Sequence record: OR525698.1
Reading direction: 5' to 3' (one strand)
DNA from: Escherichia phage vB-Eco-KMB43
DNA length: 64,000 nt
A program made the translations under genes and the position numbers. A model generated the notes under the pieces. That model was not told the origin of the DNA. It searched no databases and was given only the letters and a program-made list of their open reading frames with translations. Below, one piece after another: positions 15,626 to 57,475 of the stretch. Numbering within the stretch: position 1 is the first letter of the stretch; each line of letters begins with the position of its first letter.

Positions 15626-15631
15626 CACCTA

Positions 15632-15664
15632 AAAACGAAAAAGCCACCCTTTCGGATGGCTTTT
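15632..15664 (-). terminator. hairpin terminator (usable in both directions)
   Basis: GCCACCC-tttc-GGATGGC stem flanked by A-run and T-run. Confidence 0.65.
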
Positions 15665-15894
15665 GATTATATTTTATTCACGTCCATTTGTATAGTAGTG
15701 TTTGAATCGACCTTTGCTAAACTAGTTAAACATAGTAACCAATTCACCATCCCTTTCCAATGATAACCCTTCCTCGTCTTAGACGGGTCTTCCGATTCGG
15801 CAGTAATTGAACACGCGAAAGTATGAGGAAGCCAAATAGTTGTCTTAATGCTAGTATTCTTTTACTTCTGGTATGCATCCCACGGTGACTAACA

Positions 15895-16392
15895 TTAAGA
15901 CAGTCGAGTGAGTTTATAAATTGTTTTAAAACATAGAGCTTTGATATCGTCTAAAACGCTCTGTAACGAGCTATCAACATCATTATAAATCTCACTAGCC
16001 ATTTGCGTTAACTCTTGCAAATAGGCAATTTCGCTAATCTCCTTGCGGACGACCAACGTTGGCTGATAACGACCAGTGATCCCAATATTGGTTTCAGTGA
16101 AATCATCAACCAATTCTTGCATTTCAAGATAGAACTCTTCTAGAGCCTTATGTTTTGCATAAGATCCAGGACCAGTTACCCCAAAATGCGCAGAATGCAT
16201 ATAAGTAACACTCATCAGACATTCACCGATAAAGCGGTCAACTTTATTAGCTTTCCCCTCTTCGGACGTCTTTCGAAAATCACTGAATTTCATGTTCTCG
16301 ATTCTCCATATTATGCAACATAACAAACTGTTGTGCGGCATATTCCCCCATAATAAAACACTGCTTAGAATCCATACATTTACTACGAGCAT
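15895..16392 (-). CDS. hypothetical protein (probable CDS 15895..16293)
   Basis: Internal ATG at 16293 (MKFSDF) with GGAGAATCGAGAAC RBS. Confidence 0.5.
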   Translation of the reverse strand: MLVVNVWILSSVLLWGNMPHNSLLCCIIWRIENMKFSDFRKTSEEGKANKVDRFIGECLMSVTYMHSAHFGVTGPGSYAKHKALEEFYLEMQELVDDFTETNIGITGRYQPTLVVRKEISEIAYLQELTQMASEIYNDVDSSLQSVLDDIKALCFKTIYKLTRLS

Positions 16393-16582
16393 ACATCTTC
16401 ATAATATGGGCATGAAATTTCTGGCTGGTTTCAATGGAAGGAGATATTTTGTTTACATATACTATCATTGCGCCGTCGAAATAATCAGTAAAGTCACCAG
16501 TTGGATCATATTGATCAGCACTGACACTTCCGACCGCAGTCAAGCATATTGCCGCTGTTAGAGTTTTACGAATAAATGACAT
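16280..16582 (-). CDS. secreted small protein with N-terminal signal peptide
   Basis: MSFIRKTLTAAICLTAVGSVSA signal-like N-terminus; TATAAATA motif upstream on the minus strand. Confidence 0.5.
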   Translation of the reverse strand: MSFIRKTLTAAICLTAVGSVSADQYDPTGDFTDYFDGAMIVYVNKISPSIETSQKFHAHIMKMYARSKCMDSKQCFIMGEYAAQQFVMLHNMENREHEIQ

Positions 16583-16615
16583 AAGTCATTCCCCCAGATT
16601 AAAAATATTCAGTTA

Positions 16616-16623
16616 TATTTATA
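16616..16623 (-). promoter_or_regulatory. possible T4-type late promoter motif (TATAAATA) inside a hairpin loop
   Basis: tatttata on the top strand, flanked by CCCCAGATTA/TAATCTGGGG inverted repeat 16591-16630. Confidence 0.35.
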
Positions 16624-16650
16624 ATCTGGGGCTTTATTTATGATTAACTC

Positions 16651-17247
16651 TTATTTGGTAGTACCGTCAATAAAATGTTTACGACACACAGAAACATATT
16701 TATCCTCTGCACCAACTTCTATTTGAGCACCATCGCGAATAACATTACCATCTTTATCTACGCGAAGGACCATAGTCGCTTTCTTGCCACAATGACAAAT
16801 ACCCTTCATTTCGACCAGTTTATCAGCAAATGCCATTAATGCCGTAGATCCTTCAAATAGATTGCCCTGAAAGTCAGTGCGAAGGCCATAGCACAGTACA
16901 GGGATATTAGCATCATCAACAAGCGCACACAAGCCTAAAACATGCTCTTTAGTCATAAATTGGGCTTCGTCTACAAAAACTGCATCTGGACGCCATCGAT
17001 CCGGTCTACGCTTACCTAACGATTCACGATAAACCAAGTCGAAAAGATCATCCGATTTAGTGAAGGTGATCGCTGGAGCACTTAGGCCAATTCGGGAAAC
17101 GACTTCACTTTCTGAATCTCGATTATCAATCGCTGGCTTAAGAATTAATACTCGCATATCACGTTCGGTATAGTTATAAGCACTTTGTAACAGAGAAGTT
17201 GATTTGCCAGCGTTCATAGATGCATAGTAGAAATATAATTGCGCCAT
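16651..17247 (-). CDS. tk: thymidine kinase
   Basis: P-loop YFYYASMNAGKST, VDEAQF, CYGLRTDFQG and C-terminal Cys cluster match bacterial/T4 thymidine kinases as recalled. Confidence 0.9.
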   Translation of the reverse strand: MAQLYFYYASMNAGKSTSLLQSAYNYTERDMRVLILKPAIDNRDSESEVVSRIGLSAPAITFTKSDDLFDLVYRESLGKRRPDRWRPDAVFVDEAQFMTKEHVLGLCALVDDANIPVLCYGLRTDFQGNLFEGSTALMAFADKLVEMKGICHCGKKATMVLRVDKDGNVIRDGAQIEVGAEDKYVSVCRKHFIDGTTK

Positions 17248-26473: not shown

Positions 26474-26668
26474 TTATTCAAACTCAAACGGTCTATTCAA
26501 CCTATTGTAAAAGTACATATAACAAGCAAAATTATGCTTTGGCTGTACCGTATCAGATAGACACGCTTTTACAGCCTCGCGGTCCGATGGGTCTACACCC
26601 TCAGCTTTAAGTAATGCTAAAATCTGGTTATAGCGTACTCTTAGTTGTACTAATGGTTTATCCCCCAT
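26474..26668 (-). CDS. small hypothetical protein
   Basis: ORF track. Confidence 0.45.
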   Translation of the reverse strand: MGDKPLVQLRVRYNQILALLKAEGVDPSDREAVKACLSDTVQPKHNFACYMYFYNRLNRPFEFE

Positions 26669-26971: not shown

Positions 26972-27157
26972 TCAGAAATATGCAATATAGTTTGCCAGTC
27001 CTACAGAGTCATCATTCGGCATTGCTTTTACCGCCAGTTCAAACCCTGCTTCAACTTTCTGTTTAGCGGATTCTTCGTTATAACCCCAGATGACCAGAAT
27101 AGCTACTACGTTTTCTTTGCTTACTGCTTTCAGTGCTTTAGTGATGCGACGTGCCAT
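26972..27157 (-). CDS. small hypothetical protein
   Basis: ORF track; promoter and conserved leader upstream. Confidence 0.5.
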   Translation of the reverse strand: MARRITKALKAVSKENVVAILVIWGYNEESAKQKVEAGFELAVKAMPNDDSVGLANYIAYF

Positions 27158-27203
27158 AATTTGATTCTCCGTTTAAGAAAGCGTGTTTCGTTTCGATGGG
27201 TGT

Positions 27204-27232
27204 ATTATGCTATAGGCGTGATCTGGTGTCAA
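27204..27232 (-). promoter_or_regulatory. early promoter (TTGACA -17- CATAAT) with conserved leader
   Basis: tgtcaa at 27227-27232; leader CATCGAAACGAAACAC...GGAGAATCAAATTATG. Confidence 0.65.
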
Positions 27233-27258
27233 CAACTTTTTTAAAAAAATTTTAGGCA

Positions 27259-27286
27259 ATAAAAAAGCCACTCCGAAGAGTGGCTT
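27259..27286 (-). terminator. rho-independent terminator (UUCG tetraloop hairpin)
   Basis: AGCCACTC-ttcg-GAGTGGCT perfect 8 bp stem followed by a T-run on the minus strand. Confidence 0.75.
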
Positions 27287-27290
27287 ATAG

Positions 27291-27434
27291 GGAAGGTAGC
27301 GAATCTTCCTTGTCTCCAACCTGCTAGCGGCCTAGCAAGTGAATGCTTTAGCGTACCGGATCACCCCATACGCTGTAATAAATGCGGCTAGGTGACGTCC
27401 AAATCATTCTAACCGCGCTGTCTTTAGTTCACTA
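27291..27434 (-). ncRNA. ORF-free structured 3' region, possible small RNA (speculative)
   Basis: 144 nt without ORF between gene end and terminator; several local stem-loops (GGAAGG..CTTCC; GCGGCTAG..CTAACCGC). Confidence 0.2.
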
Positions 27435-27653
27435 TTATTTATATCGCTTTCTCTCGCGACGTTTTTGATCTTCTTCCTTGATAGAGTTAAACGCATCAAA
27501 AAGACACATGACACTGATAATGAACATAACCGTATTTTCTACGATATCCCACGGCTTCGCATCAGTACAGATCCCCCAAACGGTAAGAAATGCAAATAGT
27601 GCAGAAGAGATCACAAGCATGATACTTGCTAAGATATAAAAAGTCATTTTCAT
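27435..27653 (-). CDS. small membrane protein
   Basis: ORF track; hydrophobic N-terminal half, basic tail. Confidence 0.45.
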   Translation of the reverse strand: MKMTFYILASIMLVISSALFAFLTVWGICTDAKPWDIVENTVMFIISVMCLFDAFNSIKEEDQKRRERKRYK

Positions 27654-32600: not shown

Positions 32601-33077
32601 CTATTTGTTAAGCCCTTTAAAGCCAAACACTTTCTTTAATGCATGTTCGGTGATGATCTTAAACTCCATGTTATGCTTTTGGCACAAATCAACCGCAGCT
32701 TTCCACTTTTCCGTGTTTACAGTATATGTGTAACACTCTTGCATGTATCTTTGCTTAGTCTTAGTGGTTATTCTTTTTGGCCTTTCCGGTGGCCGTGTCT
32801 CTTTTGCCGGTTTAACTTCCCATAAGAACTCTTTACCATCTACAAATTTCACCCAAAAATCCATATGATACTTTCTGGATCGTTTATCTGCGCTAGACCA
32901 GTAAGGTATAATCACACACTCAGAGTTCCATTTAGACACGCTAGGACTACGGTCCAAAAATTTCATTATGTGCAATTCCCAGCTTGATCTATAAGTGATT
33001 TTATGCAAGTTGTTTCCTTTGTACTTCTCAGGATTTTCTGGCTTGAACTTGCCCTTATAAGTGTTAGATCCTCCCAT
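32601..33077 (-). CDS. 4: head completion protein
   Basis: Position divergent from gene 53 as in T4; size similar. Confidence 0.65.
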   Translation of the reverse strand: MGGSNTYKGKFKPENPEKYKGNNLHKITYRSSWELHIMKFLDRSPSVSKWNSECVIIPYWSSADKRSRKYHMDFWVKFVDGKEFLWEVKPAKETRPPERPKRITTKTKQRYMQECYTYTVNTEKWKAAVDLCQKHNMEFKIITEHALKKVFGFKGLNK

Positions 33078-33092
33078 TTTAGCACCCTTTAT

Positions 33093-33100
33093 TATAAATA
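33093..33100 (+). promoter_or_regulatory. T4-type late promoter motif TATAAATA upstream of gene 53
   Basis: Exact TATAAATA 33 nt upstream of the start codon. Confidence 0.65.
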
Positions 33101-33132
33101 CATAATACTATTTATCAATTGAGGGTGCTAAA

Positions 33133-33687
33133 ATGCTCTTTTCTTTCTTCCCTGCCATTGAATACAACGGCAAGATGATTACTGACATTGTGCGCAATTA
33201 CCGCGCCTATTTCAACGCAATAATTTCTGATTATAACATACAAACATATTACATTCAAGGTAGTCCACGACCGGAACAAGTTGCATATGAAGTATACGGA
33301 AACCAACAACTTTATTGGATCTTGCTGATGCTTAATGACGTATACGATCCGTTCCATGACTGGATCACCGATCAAGAGACAGCATATGAATCAGCCGAAC
33401 AGCGATATGCAAATGTAGGAGGAAATCAAGTATTATACCACGTTGATATTGACGGAAACAAGTATTGGAATCTTACCGAATATCCGAAAGGATCAAGCAA
33501 TTGGTATGATAAAGGGGATATTCATCATCGTCATTTGCAGTTTCAAGGTGCACTATCGGCAGTAGACACACTGGAAGATGCGATCCTCCGTAATGAGGAA
33601 CGACGCAAGATCAAGATCATAGATCCTACACAAATTAAACAATTTATTAACGCATTCATTCGAGAAATGGAAAAGGCTGATGTGTAA
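33133..33687 (+). CDS. 53: baseplate wedge protein
   Basis: Immediately precedes gene 5 as in T4; late promoter upstream. Confidence 0.75.
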   Translation: MLFSFFPAIEYNGKMITDIVRNYRAYFNAIISDYNIQTYYIQGSPRPEQVAYEVYGNQQLYWILLMLNDVYDPFHDWITDQETAYESAEQRYANVGGNQVLYHVDIDGNKYWNLTEYPKGSSNWYDKGDIHHRHLQFQGALSAVDTLEDAILRNEERRKIKIIDPTQIKQFINAFIREMEKADV

Positions 33688-43023: not shown

Positions 43024-43862
43024 TGGCACGACTTTCTAAACAAGAGCAAAAATTACACGATCGGGCGATGGAGCTAATCAATTCAGATCGCCCATTGACC
43101 TATGAAGAAAAAGAATTTTGCTATAACAACTATCATGGCGATGGGCTAGGTGGTTCCGGTGCATTCTTTACCCCAGAAGGGCTTGCCTGGGATTTTACCA
43201 TTGATGCACACTGCACCGGAAAAGTATTGGACCTTTGTGCTGGGATCGGTCGTTTATCTTTTTGTATGTTGCATCGCTGTAAGCCAGAAAAGATCGTATG
43301 CGTCGAACTCAATCCAGAATTTGCGAGGATTGGCAAGCGACTATTACCGGAGGCAGAATGGATCACCAGCGATGTATTCGAATTTGAGTCAAACGAGAAA
43401 TTCGATGTTGTAATTAGCAATCCACCTTTCGGGAAAATCAATACAACCGACACAAAGGATGTATTTGAGTACACTGGCGGCGAATTTGAATTTAAGGTTA
43501 TGACATTAGGCCAGAAGTTTGCCGATGTAGGTTATTTTATTGTTCCTACTGGTTCCGCTGGTTTTGCCTATTCCGGTAGACCTTATTATGATGGATCAGT
43601 GAAGTCTAATAAATATCTAAAATGGAGCAAACAAACTGGTTTGGTGACTTATGCCGGATGTGGGATCGATACATCAATCTATCGCGATGAATGGCACAGT
43701 ACCAACGTTTTAACAGAAGTGGTTGAGGTTCGGTATTACGAGAAAGAAGCCGTAGAAGCGCCTAAATCGCGTCCTAACGAACAAATAGAAGAAAGTAAGG
43801 AGATTACCTTACCGGAACAAGAAACAGCGTCTGGGACGCTCTCAGACTTGTTTGACATTTAA
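43023..43862 (+). CDS. class I SAM-dependent amino-methyltransferase-like protein (NPPF motif)
   Basis: Motif I VLDLCAGIGRLS and motif IV VISNPPFGKI about 55 aa apart (gamma-like order); acidic C-terminal tail. Confidence 0.65.
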   Translation: MARLSKQEQKLHDRAMELINSDRPLTYEEKEFCYNNYHGDGLGGSGAFFTPEGLAWDFTIDAHCTGKVLDLCAGIGRLSFCMLHRCKPEKIVCVELNPEFARIGKRLLPEAEWITSDVFEFESNEKFDVVISNPPFGKINTTDTKDVFEYTGGEFEFKVMTLGQKFADVGYFIVPTGSAGFAYSGRPYYDGSVKSNKYLKWSKQTGLVTYAGCGIDTSIYRDEWHSTNVLTEVVEVRYYEKEAVEAPKSRPNEQIEESKEITLPEQETASGTLSDLFDI

Positions 43863-43865
43863 TTA

Positions 43866-43893
43866 TAAGCCGTCCTCGTGGGCGGCTTTTTTG
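43866..43893 (+). terminator. rho-independent terminator after the methyltransferase-like gene
   Basis: AGCCGTCC-tcgtg-GGCGGCT stem followed by T6. Confidence 0.65.
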
Positions 43894-43902
43894 TATGTAT
43901 TT

Positions 43903-43910
43903 TATAAATA
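43903..43910 (+). promoter_or_regulatory. T4-type late promoter motif TATAAATA upstream of gene 9
   Basis: Exact TATAAATA 28 nt upstream of the start. Confidence 0.65.
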
Positions 43911-43937
43911 ATACATCATAACATGAGGAATTAAACA

Positions 43938-55401: not shown

Positions 55402-57402
55402 ATGACTCTATTATCACCGGGTTTCGAAACGAAAGAAACTACTCTCTCCACTACCATTGTGCAATCTGCGACTGGTCGCGCGGCGCTGGTAGGTAAATTT
55501 CAATGGGGTCCAGCTTTCCAGATTGTTCAAGTAACTAATGAAGTTGAATTAGTTAATAAATTTGGTCAGCCGGATAATAACACCGCAGACTATTTCATGA
55601 GCGGGGCTAACTTCCTCCAGTATGGCAATGACCTGCGTGTTGTTCGTGTACTCAATAAAGAAAAAGCAAAAAACGCAACCGCACTGGCTGGTAACGTCGA
55701 GTTTGAAATCACAAACGAAGGTTCAAACTATGAAGTAGGCGATACCATCAAGATTAAACATAACCGTCAAGATATTGAAACGGCAGGTAAAGTAACTAAA
55801 GTTGATGGTGATGGTAAAGTTAAGGGAGTATTTATCCCAACTGGTAAAATTATCGCTCACGCTAAAGCAATTGGTGTTTATCCAGAACTTGATGGCGATT
55901 GGACGGCAGAGTTCACTTCTTCGTCAGGTAACGGCAGTGCGGCGCTGTCAGTAACTAAAATTGTTACTGATTCCGGTCTTCTGTTAACGGATCTGGAAAC
56001 TTCCCGCGCCAATATCACAAATCAAACTTTCTTGACTAAACTCCAGAAGTATGATATGCCAGCGGTAAGCGCGATCTATGCTGGTGAGATTGGCAACTCG
56101 CTGGAAGTGGAAATTCTGGCGCGTAGTGCGTTTAAGAACACTGCACCGGATCTGACCATATATCCTTATGGTGGCGAGCGCACCGCAGCACGCAACCTGA
56201 TTCCATATGCACCGCAGAATGATAATCAATATGCGTTTATTGTTCGTCGTGATGGTGTTGTGGTAGAATCCTATGTACTGTCTACTCTGAAAGGGGATAA
56301 AGACGTATACGGCAATTCTATCTATATGGACGACTTCTTTGCTCGTGGTTCTAGCCAGTACATCTATGCAACCGCTCAGGGCTGGGTAGATGGTTTCAGT
56401 GGCATTATCTCTCTTGCTGGTGGCGTTTCTGCTAACGAATCCGCAACTGCTGGTGTTGGTGCTGATCCGTTCATCGGTGCGATGATGCAAGGATGGGATC
56501 TGTTTGCTGAACGTGAATCTATTCACGTAAACCTGTTGATTGCTGGTGCATGTGCTGGCGAAGGCGATGCGTTCTCTACCGTACAGAAACATGCTGTTTC
56601 CATCGGTGACGAGCGTCAGGATTGCTTAGTAATGGTTTCTCCGCCGCGTAGCACTGTTGTTAATATTCCGGTGACTACCGCAATTGATAACCTGATTGCA
56701 TGGCGCGAAGGTTCAGGAAACTATAATGAAAACAACATGAACATTAATACCACTTACGCGGTTATTGATGGTAACTACAAATATCAGTATGACAAATACA
56801 ACGACGTAAACCGTTGGGTTCCGTTGGCTGCTGATATTGCTGGTTTATGTGCTCGAACTGATGTGGTATCTCAACCGTGGATGAGTCCGGCAGGTTATAA
56901 CCGTGGTCAGGTCATGAACGTGGTTAAACTGGCAATTGAGCCTCGCAAGGCGCACCGCGATCGTCTGTATCAGGCCGCAATTAACCCGGTAATCGGTGCT
57001 GGTGGTGAAGGGTTTATCCTGATGGGTGATAAAACCGCTACGACTGTTCCTAGCCCGTTTGACCGCATTAACGTTCGTCGTCTGTTTAACATGCTGAAAA
57101 AGAATATCGGCGATTCAAGCAAATACAAACTGTTTGAAAACAACGATAACTTTACTCGCGCTTCCTTCCGTATGGAGGTTTCGCAATATCTCAGCACGAT
57201 TCGCTCTCTTGGTGGCATTTATGACTTCCGAGTACAATGCGACACCACGAACAACACGCCTGATGTAATTGATCGTAATGAATTTGTTGCTAGCATGTTC
57301 ATCAAACCGGCAAAATCGATCAACTATATCATGCTCAATTTCACTGCTGTTGCAACTGGTGCTGATTTTGACGAAATTATCGGTCCAGCTAACCAGGCAT
57401 AA
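55402..57402 (+). CDS. 18: tail sheath protein
   Basis: 666 aa in gene 18 position. Confidence 0.9.
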   Translation: MTLLSPGFETKETTLSTTIVQSATGRAALVGKFQWGPAFQIVQVTNEVELVNKFGQPDNNTADYFMSGANFLQYGNDLRVVRVLNKEKAKNATALAGNVEFEITNEGSNYEVGDTIKIKHNRQDIETAGKVTKVDGDGKVKGVFIPTGKIIAHAKAIGVYPELDGDWTAEFTSSSGNGSAALSVTKIVTDSGLLLTDLETSRANITNQTFLTKLQKYDMPAVSAIYAGEIGNSLEVEILARSAFKNTAPDLTIYPYGGERTAARNLIPYAPQNDNQYAFIVRRDGVVVESYVLSTLKGDKDVYGNSIYMDDFFARGSSQYIYATAQGWVDGFSGIISLAGGVSANESATAGVGADPFIGAMMQGWDLFAERESIHVNLLIAGACAGEGDAFSTVQKHAVSIGDERQDCLVMVSPPRSTVVNIPVTTAIDNLIAWREGSGNYNENNMNINTTYAVIDGNYKYQYDKYNDVNRWVPLAADIAGLCARTDVVSQPWMSPAGYNRGQVMNVVKLAIEPRKAHRDRLYQAAINPVIGAGGEGFILMGDKTATTVPSPFDRINVRRLFNMLKKNIGDSSKYKLFENNDNFTRASFRMEVSQYLSTIRSLGGIYDFRVQCDTTNNTPDVIDRNEFVASMFIKPAKSINYIMLNFTAVATGADFDEIIGPANQA

Positions 57403-57435
57403 TCAGTAAATTAGCATAGATTAAAAGTTAAATCA

Positions 57436-57460
57436 AGCGGGGAGAAAATCCCCGCTCTAT
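57436..57460 (+). terminator. intergenic hairpin GCGGGGAGAAAATCCCCGC (terminator or RNA-stability element)
   Basis: 8 bp GC stem after the gene 18 stop; weak U-tract. Confidence 0.45.
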
Positions 57461-57475
57461 TAAGGAATATCAATT

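Follow-up and report, generated by a model that had tools for sequence, protein, structure and literature searches.

Two ORF-Free Intervals Bounded by PeSL Cassettes

What occupies the ORF-poor stretch that follows rI.-1 in Escherichia phage vB-Eco-KMB43? The initial annotation proposed a small RNA, both for this interval (15665-15894) and for a similar one at 27291-27434. The window, that is, the whole 64-kb stretch of phage DNA analyzed here, is 98–99.9% identical to the RB49-type Krischviruses (RB49-like T4-type coliphages). In this region the coding strand is the minus strand, and the genes follow one another in the order tk (17247-16651), rI (16582-16280), rI.-1 (16293-15895), a gap, and a gene for a 69-aa protein (15566-15357). 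The product of rI.-1 belongs to PHROG 858 (E = 3.8e-43), and the gene carries this name in RB49 and JSE. The gap between rI.-1 and the 69-aa gene is 328 nt long and devoid of annotation. The limits given to the first interval were right: the TAA stop codon of rI.-1 is at 15897-15895 and an intrinsic terminator with an 11-bp stem and a U tract lies at 15664-15639, both on the minus strand.

This terminator is the stem-loop half of a promoter-early stem-loop cassette (PeSL), an element reported from RB49 and Phi1 (Arbiol et al. 2010; PMC2839356). A PeSL associates a stem-loop terminator with an adjoining sigma-70-like early promoter, an AT-rich upstream region, and a downstream Shine-Dalgarno sequence, and is repeated in the hyperplastic regions of these genomes (PMC2839356). 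In RB49 and Phi1, insertion, deletion, and replacement polymorphisms of the hyperplastic regions are bounded by PeSL, and PeSL recombination has been documented (PMC2839356). The terminator at 15664-15639 is annotated as such in the records of TB34, GEC-3S, and G2248. Its stem-loop is identical in all eight genomes of our E-INS-i alignment, and in a separate alignment GEC-3S differs by one stem base. The promoter half, a sigma-70-type TTGACA-17-CATAAT motif on the minus strand at 15625-15597 that is annotated as a promoter in GEC-3S, drives the next gene, 15566-15357. The second interval is followed by the same arrangement on the same strand: a UUCG-loop terminator at 27286-27265, annotated in GEC-3S and G2248, and an early promoter TTGACA-17-CATAAT at 27232-27204 driving a 61-aa gene (27157-26972). 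Both intervals thus end in a terminator adjoined by this promoter, whose motif occurs at no fewer than eight places across the window. Neither interval contains internal repeats or has an extra copy within the 64-kb window, where only the PeSL parts are repeated.

The First Interval Retains Three Pieces of a Long Gene

A sensitive BLASTN search of the first interval against 50,697 phage records matched 58 Krischvirus records. Fifty of these carry the same remnant and two a Phi1-type rearranged sequence; the six others, matched by the ends of the interval only, carry an intact gene. In these six phages (G2248, Brandy, SSG23, SFHK24, UPWr_E1, and JK32), a 2.14-kb ORF of 713–716 codons is located exactly between rI.-1 and the terminator that we find here at 15664-15639. 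A full-length copy of this gene is also present in the divergent 170-kb metagenomic contig from which our locus L029 was taken. By BLASTN and MAFFT, positions 15894-15754, 15739-15705, and 15712-15667 of the window match the intact ORF at its 5′ end, within it, and at its 3′ end, respectively. The E-INS-i alignment, in which the intact genes are those of G2248, Brandy, SSG23, and JK32, places the window on three pieces of this ORF. A tblastn search with the G2248 protein detected residues 5-32 in about 32 Krischvirus records and residues 647-714 in Phi1. The three methods (BLASTN, MAFFT alignment, and tblastn) are independent and agree on synteny and on the alignment to the intact gene.

Read along the minus strand, the interval begins with the former spacer between rI.-1 and the lost gene (15894-15875), in which the Shine-Dalgarno sequence is degraded, GTGGGA here versus GGGGAA or GGGGGA in the phages with an intact gene. 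The 5′ fragment (15874-15746, codons ~1-46) is identified by alignment, BLASTP, and tblastn; its translation shares 28 of 36 residues with positions 5-40 of the G2248 protein (BLASTP, E = 2e-19). The alignment then defines an internal fragment at 15745-15713, about codons 616-629. The 3′-terminal fragment, about codons 703-714, spans 15712-15674 and ends with the original TAA stop codon at 15676-15674.

The lesions are numerous. The start codon is lost by a change of ATG to ATA at 15874-15872, an additional A inserted at 15858/15857 shifts the reading frame by +1, and GAG is replaced by the nonsense codon TAG at 15724-15722, a position at which JEP8 and an ECD7-like genome retain GAG. Two deletions of about 1.7 and 0.2 kb have removed most of the gene. 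The first junction, at ~15745-15733, coincides with a TTGTT(G/A)CTA direct repeat and the second, at 15712-15705, with a GGTCGATT direct repeat; the second deletion took out precisely the capsid-binding motif. Phi1 has the ATA codon and the extra A in common with the window, but underwent a different, single large deletion between GAAGACCCG repeats. It retains residues 647-714, the last ~215 nt of the gene, annotated there as "ORFan 84.1."

What is left evolves at the pace of unconstrained sites. Among seven genomes with the same deletions, 19 of 229 sites segregate (π = 0.030), a level equal to or slightly higher than that of the third-codon positions of four flanking genes (about 25/375, π = 0.023–0.034), the comparison bearing on small counts in 7-8 closely related genomes. 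The length of the remnant is constant in 50 genomes, which are only 1–4% diverged, so that this constancy says little and is not evidence of ongoing decay. Taken with the homology, the lesions, the deletion junctions, and a folding that is neither conserved nor unusual, this neutral rate makes us highly confident that 15666-15894 is a functionless remnant of a gene that encoded a long, second capsid-decoration protein of the Hoc-like type. We conclude that this sequence is neutral debris and would form the untranslated end of the rI.-1 transcript, which the retained terminator closes. Transcription of the relic together with the rI.-1 message is probably passive. A search of the literature yielded no Krischvirus transcriptome.

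Inverted Repeats and Folding of the Remnant

The proposal of a small RNA had drawn on three nested inverted repeats, and all three are indeed there. CTTCCTC and GAGGAAG form arms at 15769-15775 and 15825-15831, the palindrome CCGATTCGG is at 15792-15800, and a long repeat, TGTCTTAATG with CATTAAGACA, has 15-nt arms at 15841-15855 and 15888-15902 that are 93% complementary and span the rI.-1 stop codon and the first codons of the pseudogene. The structure claimed from them does not exceed chance, for once the terminator is removed the interval shows no advantage in folding over shuffled sequences. The minus strand then gives a z score of −1.36, and 13 of 200 shuffles fold equally well; the plus strand gives −0.96. 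A segment enlarged to include the terminator (15630-15905) reaches −2.82, mostly through the contribution of the latter. In a survey of 666 overlapping 144-nt minus-strand windows across the 64 kb (mean z = −0.47, SD 1.27), the two halves of the interval fall at the 98th and 24th percentiles.

The annotation had suggested looking for structure shared with related phages. In the alignments, the closest relatives show differences in the arms. Neither the GAGGAAG arm nor the CCGAATCGG palindrome occurs in any of the four aligned intact genes, and the 10-bp core of the long repeat (TGTCTTAATG/CATTAAGACA) is perfect only in this window among 12 aligned genomes. Position 15844 is a G in the window and a C in the 11 other aligned genomes; position 15900 is a T in the window and in kaaroe and a G in every other aligned genome, leaving one or two internal mismatches in the core. 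Since kaaroe carries only one of these substitutions, they were acquired successively, in two steps, which does not support an origin of the perfect 10-bp repeat by a single templated (quasi-palindrome) mutation.

Searches for known RNAs gave a similar answer. ARAGORN predicts no tRNA gene in the whole 64-kb window, and no Rfam 15 family matches the window at its gathering threshold. The best sub-threshold matches, Phe_leader (22 bits for a cutoff of 55) and EF3314_EF3315 (24 bits for a cutoff of 100), are driven by the terminator. A tRNA or tmRNA is excluded as the identity of either interval by the ARAGORN result and by the lack of any tRNA-clan match at E values up to 10, in line with the earlier failure to fold a canonical tRNA from them.

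Could the remnant nevertheless have acquired a function, either as a small regulatory RNA or as a structured rI.-1 3′ UTR exapted from the dead gene? The strong terminator downstream, the necessity of transcription with rI.-1, and a 15-bp hairpin predicted at 15841-15902 speak for such a role, which we nonetheless regard as very improbable: apart from the terminator the fold equals that of shuffled sequences, the differences seen in the hairpin arms of the closest relatives break pairs, substitutions accumulate as at the flanking third-codon positions or slightly faster, and no Rfam or tRNA family is matched. In Phi1, moreover, the 3′ ~70 nt of the remnant are swapped for another sequence of the same gene. 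Translation into a small protein is even harder to defend, and we give it next to no credence. The earlier judgment that the interval holds no credible ORF is borne out, its minus-strand ORFs being limited to one of 44 aa (15878-15744) and one of 27 aa (15750-15667). Both are real reading frames, and some GenBank records place "hypothetical protein" features on the stretch; yet the 44-aa ORF does not follow the frame of the ancestral gene, lacks a usable Shine-Dalgarno sequence, and has ATA in place of its ATG in three relatives (GEC-3S, Whisky, and ECD7). The 27-aa ORF, which runs across both deletion junctions, is debris in a shifted frame, and the substitutions in the interval follow no codon-position pattern. 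Small ORFs were likewise rejected for the second interval, neither start codons nor reading frames being conserved in either one. We see in the first interval an ordinary pseudogene remnant, located in a T4-type hyperplastic region and bounded by PeSL; no tested RNA family fits it. Pseudogene homology, neutral evolution, non-conserved hairpins, and the negative tRNA and Rfam searches together leave the small-RNA idea unsupported here.

The Lost Gene Is Best Read as a Second Hoc-Like Gene

The protein specified by the intact gene has about 714 aa and is predicted to carry its Ig-like domains in a string ahead of a Hoc-type capsid-binding C-terminus. Among protein families, it matches PHROG 1149, "Hoc-like head decoration" (E = 4e-11), and T4 Hoc (5vf3_Z from 5vf3) in a phmmer comparison (E = 7e-4). 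With a profile of the family, hhalign aligns residues 630-701 with residues 303-370 of T4 Hoc (31% identity, E = 9e-6, 83% probability), which places the C-terminus in homology with the capsid-binding domain of T4 Hoc (281-376), as expected of a member of the Hoc family. In the AlphaFold model (mean pLDDT 75.6), residues 1-604 form beta-sandwich domains in tandem, as expected for an Ig-like string, with pLDDT values mostly of 80-95 over the first ~260 residues and of ~55-90 onward to 604. The best Foldseek matches of this model are multi-Ig proteins (E = 1e-18). The C-terminus is modeled as alpha/beta with low confidence (pLDDT 30-60), and it is from the C-terminal ~70-220 residues, where this model is poor, that the ancestral gene is assigned to Hoc.

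The family is restricted and diverse. It comprises 15 clusters in a database of 5.8 billion proteins, all of 706-718 aa, 58–100% identical, and found only on Krischvirus-like contigs. The Hoc-like alleles are 58–78% identical, and the flanks on either side of them are 79–99% identical at the DNA level. The best reading of the sequence and model evidence is that the lost gene was a long, second Hoc-like decoration gene, gone from most Krischviruses. A canonical Hoc is encoded elsewhere in RB49 (PDB 3SHS; PMC10385173), and two Hoc-like proteins coexist in some other phages, for example, Serratia phage Muldoon and Enterobacter phage PG7 (PMC10385173).

In T4-type phages, Hoc is an outer capsid protein of high immunogenicity. 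Like T4 Hoc, the ancestral protein would combine a string of Ig-like domains with a C-terminal segment that aligns to residues 303-370 of the T4 protein, and like hoc its gene is dispensable and variable. In contrast, it is about twice as long (714 vs. 376 aa), and its gene adjoins rI.-1 and tk rather than gene 24/inh. It differs also in that the window holds only a dead fragment. For the intact protein, binding to the center of gp23 hexamers on the capsid, as expected of a Hoc-like protein, is a prediction.

A Proposed Two-Stage Loss by Point Inactivation and Deletion

These comparisons suggest how the interval came about. The ancestor would have had a Hoc-like gene between rI.-1 and a cassette formed by the PeSL terminator and early promoter. 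On the branch from which RB49, Phi1, and this phage descend, the gene would first have been disabled by the change of its start codon from ATG to ATA and by the +1 frameshift. Its bulk would then have been removed by deletions between 8- to 9-nt direct repeats, two of them in the RB49-type genomes, including the window, and a single, different one in Phi1. As Phi1 shares the ATA codon and the +1 A but not the deletions, we infer that point inactivation came before the large deletions, which occurred independently. About 200 nt of scrambled coding sequence would thus be left, probably transcribed as no more than a passive extension of the early tk-rI-rI.-1 message, and the inverted repeats would be by-products of the former coding sequence and of lineage-specific substitutions.

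This scenario has much in common with the PeSL-bounded polymorphisms of the same phages and of the same type of region (PMC2839356): each interval is closed by a stem-loop terminator, after which come a sigma-70-like early promoter and a Shine-Dalgarno sequence, and the genomes differ in whether they possess a non-essential gene. Unlike these polymorphisms, however, the Hoc-like gene was not lost by a clean PeSL-to-PeSL excision but by point inactivation and intragenic deletions at 8- to 9-nt repeats that left both gene ends in place. Phi1 ORF84.1 was listed as a unique ORFan (PMC2839356); judging by its sequence, it is the 3′ end of the same decayed Hoc-like gene.

A Candidate Structured RNA at the Second Interval

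The second interval is as the initial annotation described it, an ORF-free stretch of 144 nt running from a stop codon at 27435, which ends the gene for a 72-aa membrane protein, through to the UUCG-loop terminator at 27286-27265. It lies in a hyperplastic region, with dmd and acb1 located a few genes upstream. Folding, conservation, and stem substitutions point to a candidate structured RNA on the minus strand with four hairpins, H1 (27416-27384), H2 (27374-27350), H3 (27343-27315), and H4 (27309-27291). The z score of the interval is −2.82 alone and −4.10 with the terminator; the interval ranks at the 4th percentile of windows in this genome, which is notable but not extreme.

The interval is present at full length in all 58 Krischvirus records, none of which has a variant with a gene at the site, and in every divergent metagenomic relative that we recovered, about 10 contigs found by protein-neighbor look-ups of homologs of the 72-aa protein and by pattern scans of IMG/VR and metagenomes. 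In the divergent Krischvirus-like contigs (L029-L036, L042, L044-L046) it is ~96% identical, compared with 78–91% for the adjacent genes. Similarly, the whole block 26972-27434 is uniformly ~94–100% identical to L029, and both of its neighbors are 78–82% identical. Across 14 genomes, 13 of the 143 sites segregate, fewer than at the third positions of the downstream 61-aa gene (15/61, p = 0.0065) and of the upstream 72-aa gene (37/71, p = 1e-11); relative to other local non-coding DNA (28/199, p = 0.18) its diversity is not lower. Pairing is kept at the five variable columns of the core stems (5/5, nominal p = 0.03), through changes from G-C to G-U to A-U in H2 and from A-U to G-U in H2 and H4, and the G-U intermediates pair only in the minus-strand (sense) RNA. 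Over the alignment, 99.4% of cells are paired and one pair has changed on both sides, a result equaled by 63 of 500 shuffles; with stems that are nearly identical, this test is underpowered.

No Rfam family matches the interval at threshold, the permissive matches being terminator look-alikes, and our searches found no relative outside Krischvirus. A host or plasmid origin was rejected, as 5,426 E. coli genomes and PLSDB gave no BLASTN match. We also rejected the idea that the interval is a relic of the T1-like phage neighborhood in which homologs of the 61-aa protein occur, homology ending at the 5′ UTR of this gene with no translated similarity.

The interval is a candidate structured 3′-UTR RNA or small RNA, and two readings have to be weighed. 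In one, a functional sense-strand RNA is encoded, either as a 3′-UTR module that stabilizes the upstream early message against 3′ exonucleases or as a stable RNA of ~150-185 nt that is liberated from this message and has the PeSL terminator as its end. Near-invariance in metagenomic relatives whose neighboring genes have diverged to 78–91% identity, fewer segregating sites than at flanking third-codon positions, the z scores with and without the terminator, and the preserved pairing at all five variable core-stem columns argue for it, and indels in the H2 loop that disrupt every reading frame argue for RNA rather than protein as the product. Against it stand a covariation that is not significant, with its single compensatory pair, a diversity that is not below that of other local non-coding DNA, a z score at only the 4th percentile for the genome, and the lack of an Rfam match, of a second copy, and of a relative outside Krischvirus. 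Low diversity, furthermore, is a property of the whole block formed by the interval, the PeSL, and the 61-aa gene, as hitch-hiking or a recent recombination block might produce. On this evidence we hold a functional RNA to be plausible, with a likelihood somewhat under one half. At this site the initial proposal of a small RNA stays plausible in view of conservation and of the pair-keeping stem changes, with a covariation (one compensatory pair, 63/500 shuffles) that does not reach significance.

Because low diversity runs from the interval to the 61-aa gene, a recently exchanged block is a live alternative. The interval would then be neutral debris, a relic of a lost ORF or a stack of old terminator stems left by PeSL-mediated cassette shuffling, that looks conserved by virtue of its position in the exchanged block. 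Its architecture of stop codon, ORF-free stretch, and PeSL is that of the first interval, the identity to L029 rises to ~94–100% over 26972-27434 from 78–82% in the neighbors, H1 is followed by AUUUAUU as expected of a former terminator, and recombination at PeSL is documented in these phages (PMC2839356). Yet no relative has an intact gene at this site, no translated similarity links it to the neighborhood of the 61-aa homologs in T1-like phages, the interval is less variable than the third positions of the 61-aa gene inside the same block, and its stem changes all preserve pairs. We rate neutral debris at slightly less than an even chance. A more specific proposal, that the interval encodes a new Krischvirus-specific structured RNA of ~150-185 nt with four hairpins and the PeSL terminator, made early, possibly released from the 3′ end of an early message, and perhaps acting in trans, for instance on mRNAs of the phage or its host or as a decoy that draws off a host nuclease or defense system, is speculative and in our estimate unlikely.

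In bacteria, small RNAs derived from 3′ UTRs, like protective stem-loops at 3′ ends, finish with an intrinsic terminator. The second interval resembles such elements in layout alone, being structured, conserved, and directly upstream of a strong U-tract terminator at the end of a transcription unit; its signals of conservation and covariation are weak. The initial annotation had also drawn a parallel with the tRNA and small RNA genes of T4. The T4 RNAs, rnaC and rnaD (species 1 and 2) and the tRNA cluster, are small and stable and are encoded among early genes upstream of the lysozyme region. The parallel does not hold: the MAFFT alignment with rnaC and rnaD is essentially random, the tRNA-like T arm of rnaC is absent, and a covariance model of the second interval (R1) finds no match in the T4 tRNA/rnaC/rnaD region (L019).

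Implications for Krischvirus Genomes

The gap between rI.-1 and the next gene in RB49-type phages should be labeled as a Hoc-like pseudogene rather than kept as a target for small-RNA searches, and Phi1 ORF84.1 should no longer count as a unique ORFan. The interval at 27291-27434 is a modest but testable lead for a phage-specific structured RNA. The first interval offers a clean, step-resolved case of accessory gene loss in T4-type phages, in which point inactivation probably preceded independent deletions between 8- to 9-nt repeats and the downstream regulatory cassette was preserved. It also reveals a second Hoc-like capsid-decoration gene, unannotated and very variable, in a minority of Krischviruses. 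As these phages are used in therapy collections, this variable Hoc-like gene could bear on their surface properties.

Decay and Diversity of the Hoc-Like Gene

The Phi1 ORFan 84.1 (L006:1545–1673, the Phi1 locus, corresponding to NC_009821 47400–47528), given in the literature as a gene of Phi1 only (PMC2839356), is the 3'-terminal stretch (~42 codons) of the decayed Hoc-like gene. It is syntenic with positions ~15667–15745 of the window. The large deletion in Phi1 is not that of the RB49-type genomes, and Hoc-like residues 647–714 have therefore been retained there. The window has no intact copy of the gene. Such copies in relatives (L004:476–2620, L005:500–2647, L007:2545–4692, and L008:3043–5181) have "hypothetical protein" as their sole annotation. 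The alleles are strongly diverged, with 58–78% amino acid identity among 15 clusters, whereas the flanking DNA is 79–99% identical. This contrast suggests diversifying selection or a surface protein whose allelic lineages are old.

At the junction between rI.-1 and the Hoc-like gene, the intact-gene phages carry on the minus strand a 7-bp hairpin, GACTGGC-TTAAT-GCCAGTC (window-equivalent 15887–15905). Its loop contains the stop codon of rI.-1, and the Hoc-like ribosome-binding site follows just downstream. In Brandy, SSG23, and RB49, the hairpin is preserved by G-U pairs; in the window, a T at 15900 weakens it. This hairpin may act in coupling or processing within the intact operon. The perfect 10-bp repeat of the window (arms 15841–15855 and 15888–15902) derives from an imperfect quasi-palindrome via two substitutions: the T at 15900, common to the window and kaaroe, and a G at 15844, present in the window only. 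As the two substitutions were acquired in two steps, an origin in a single templated event is unlikely. Slightly further upstream, within the 3' end of rI.-1 and ~45 nt before the former Hoc-like start codon, lies the palindrome TTTATAAA (15912–15921), with TATAAAC as its gene-strand reading and TATAAAT as that of the opposite strand. This palindrome is similar to the T4 late-promoter core TATAAATA and could have driven the Hoc-like gene late in infection.

Interval 2 and the Adjacent 61-aa Gene

In our survey of 144-nt minus-strand windows, folding signals far beyond those of 15665–15894 or 27291–27434 (interval 2) were obtained at six places with z ≤ −5: 57329–57472, 33041–33184, 16529–16672, 16049–16192, 26513–26656, and 43793–43936. 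Some of these probably include terminators, such as the tk-rI spacer (16583–16650).

Several GenBank records annotate small ORFs within or across interval 2 (window 27291–27434; L027:535–678, L037:355–447, and L041:116–262 in relatives). These calls are probably spurious, because H2-loop indels between relatives disrupt every frame called. In one metagenomic relative (L044:3157–3389), a 14-nt deletion (window-equivalent ~27431–27444) has cost the 72-aa gene its stop codon and interval 2 its first bases; all four hairpins remain intact. In the terminator of phage FL15 (L041:198–383), the loop (window-equivalent 27274–27277) is CGAA instead of TTCG, its exact reverse complement, on an unaltered stem; the hairpin loop has therefore been inverted.

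Downstream of interval 2, the 61-aa gene (26972–27157) encodes a DUF7421 protein that is 100% conserved in most Krischviruses. Its homologues in T1-like siphophages (Tunavirus and relatives) are 75–80% identical, and the similarity ends at the 5' UTR of the gene. This limit of homology indicates that the 61-aa gene alone was exchanged horizontally.
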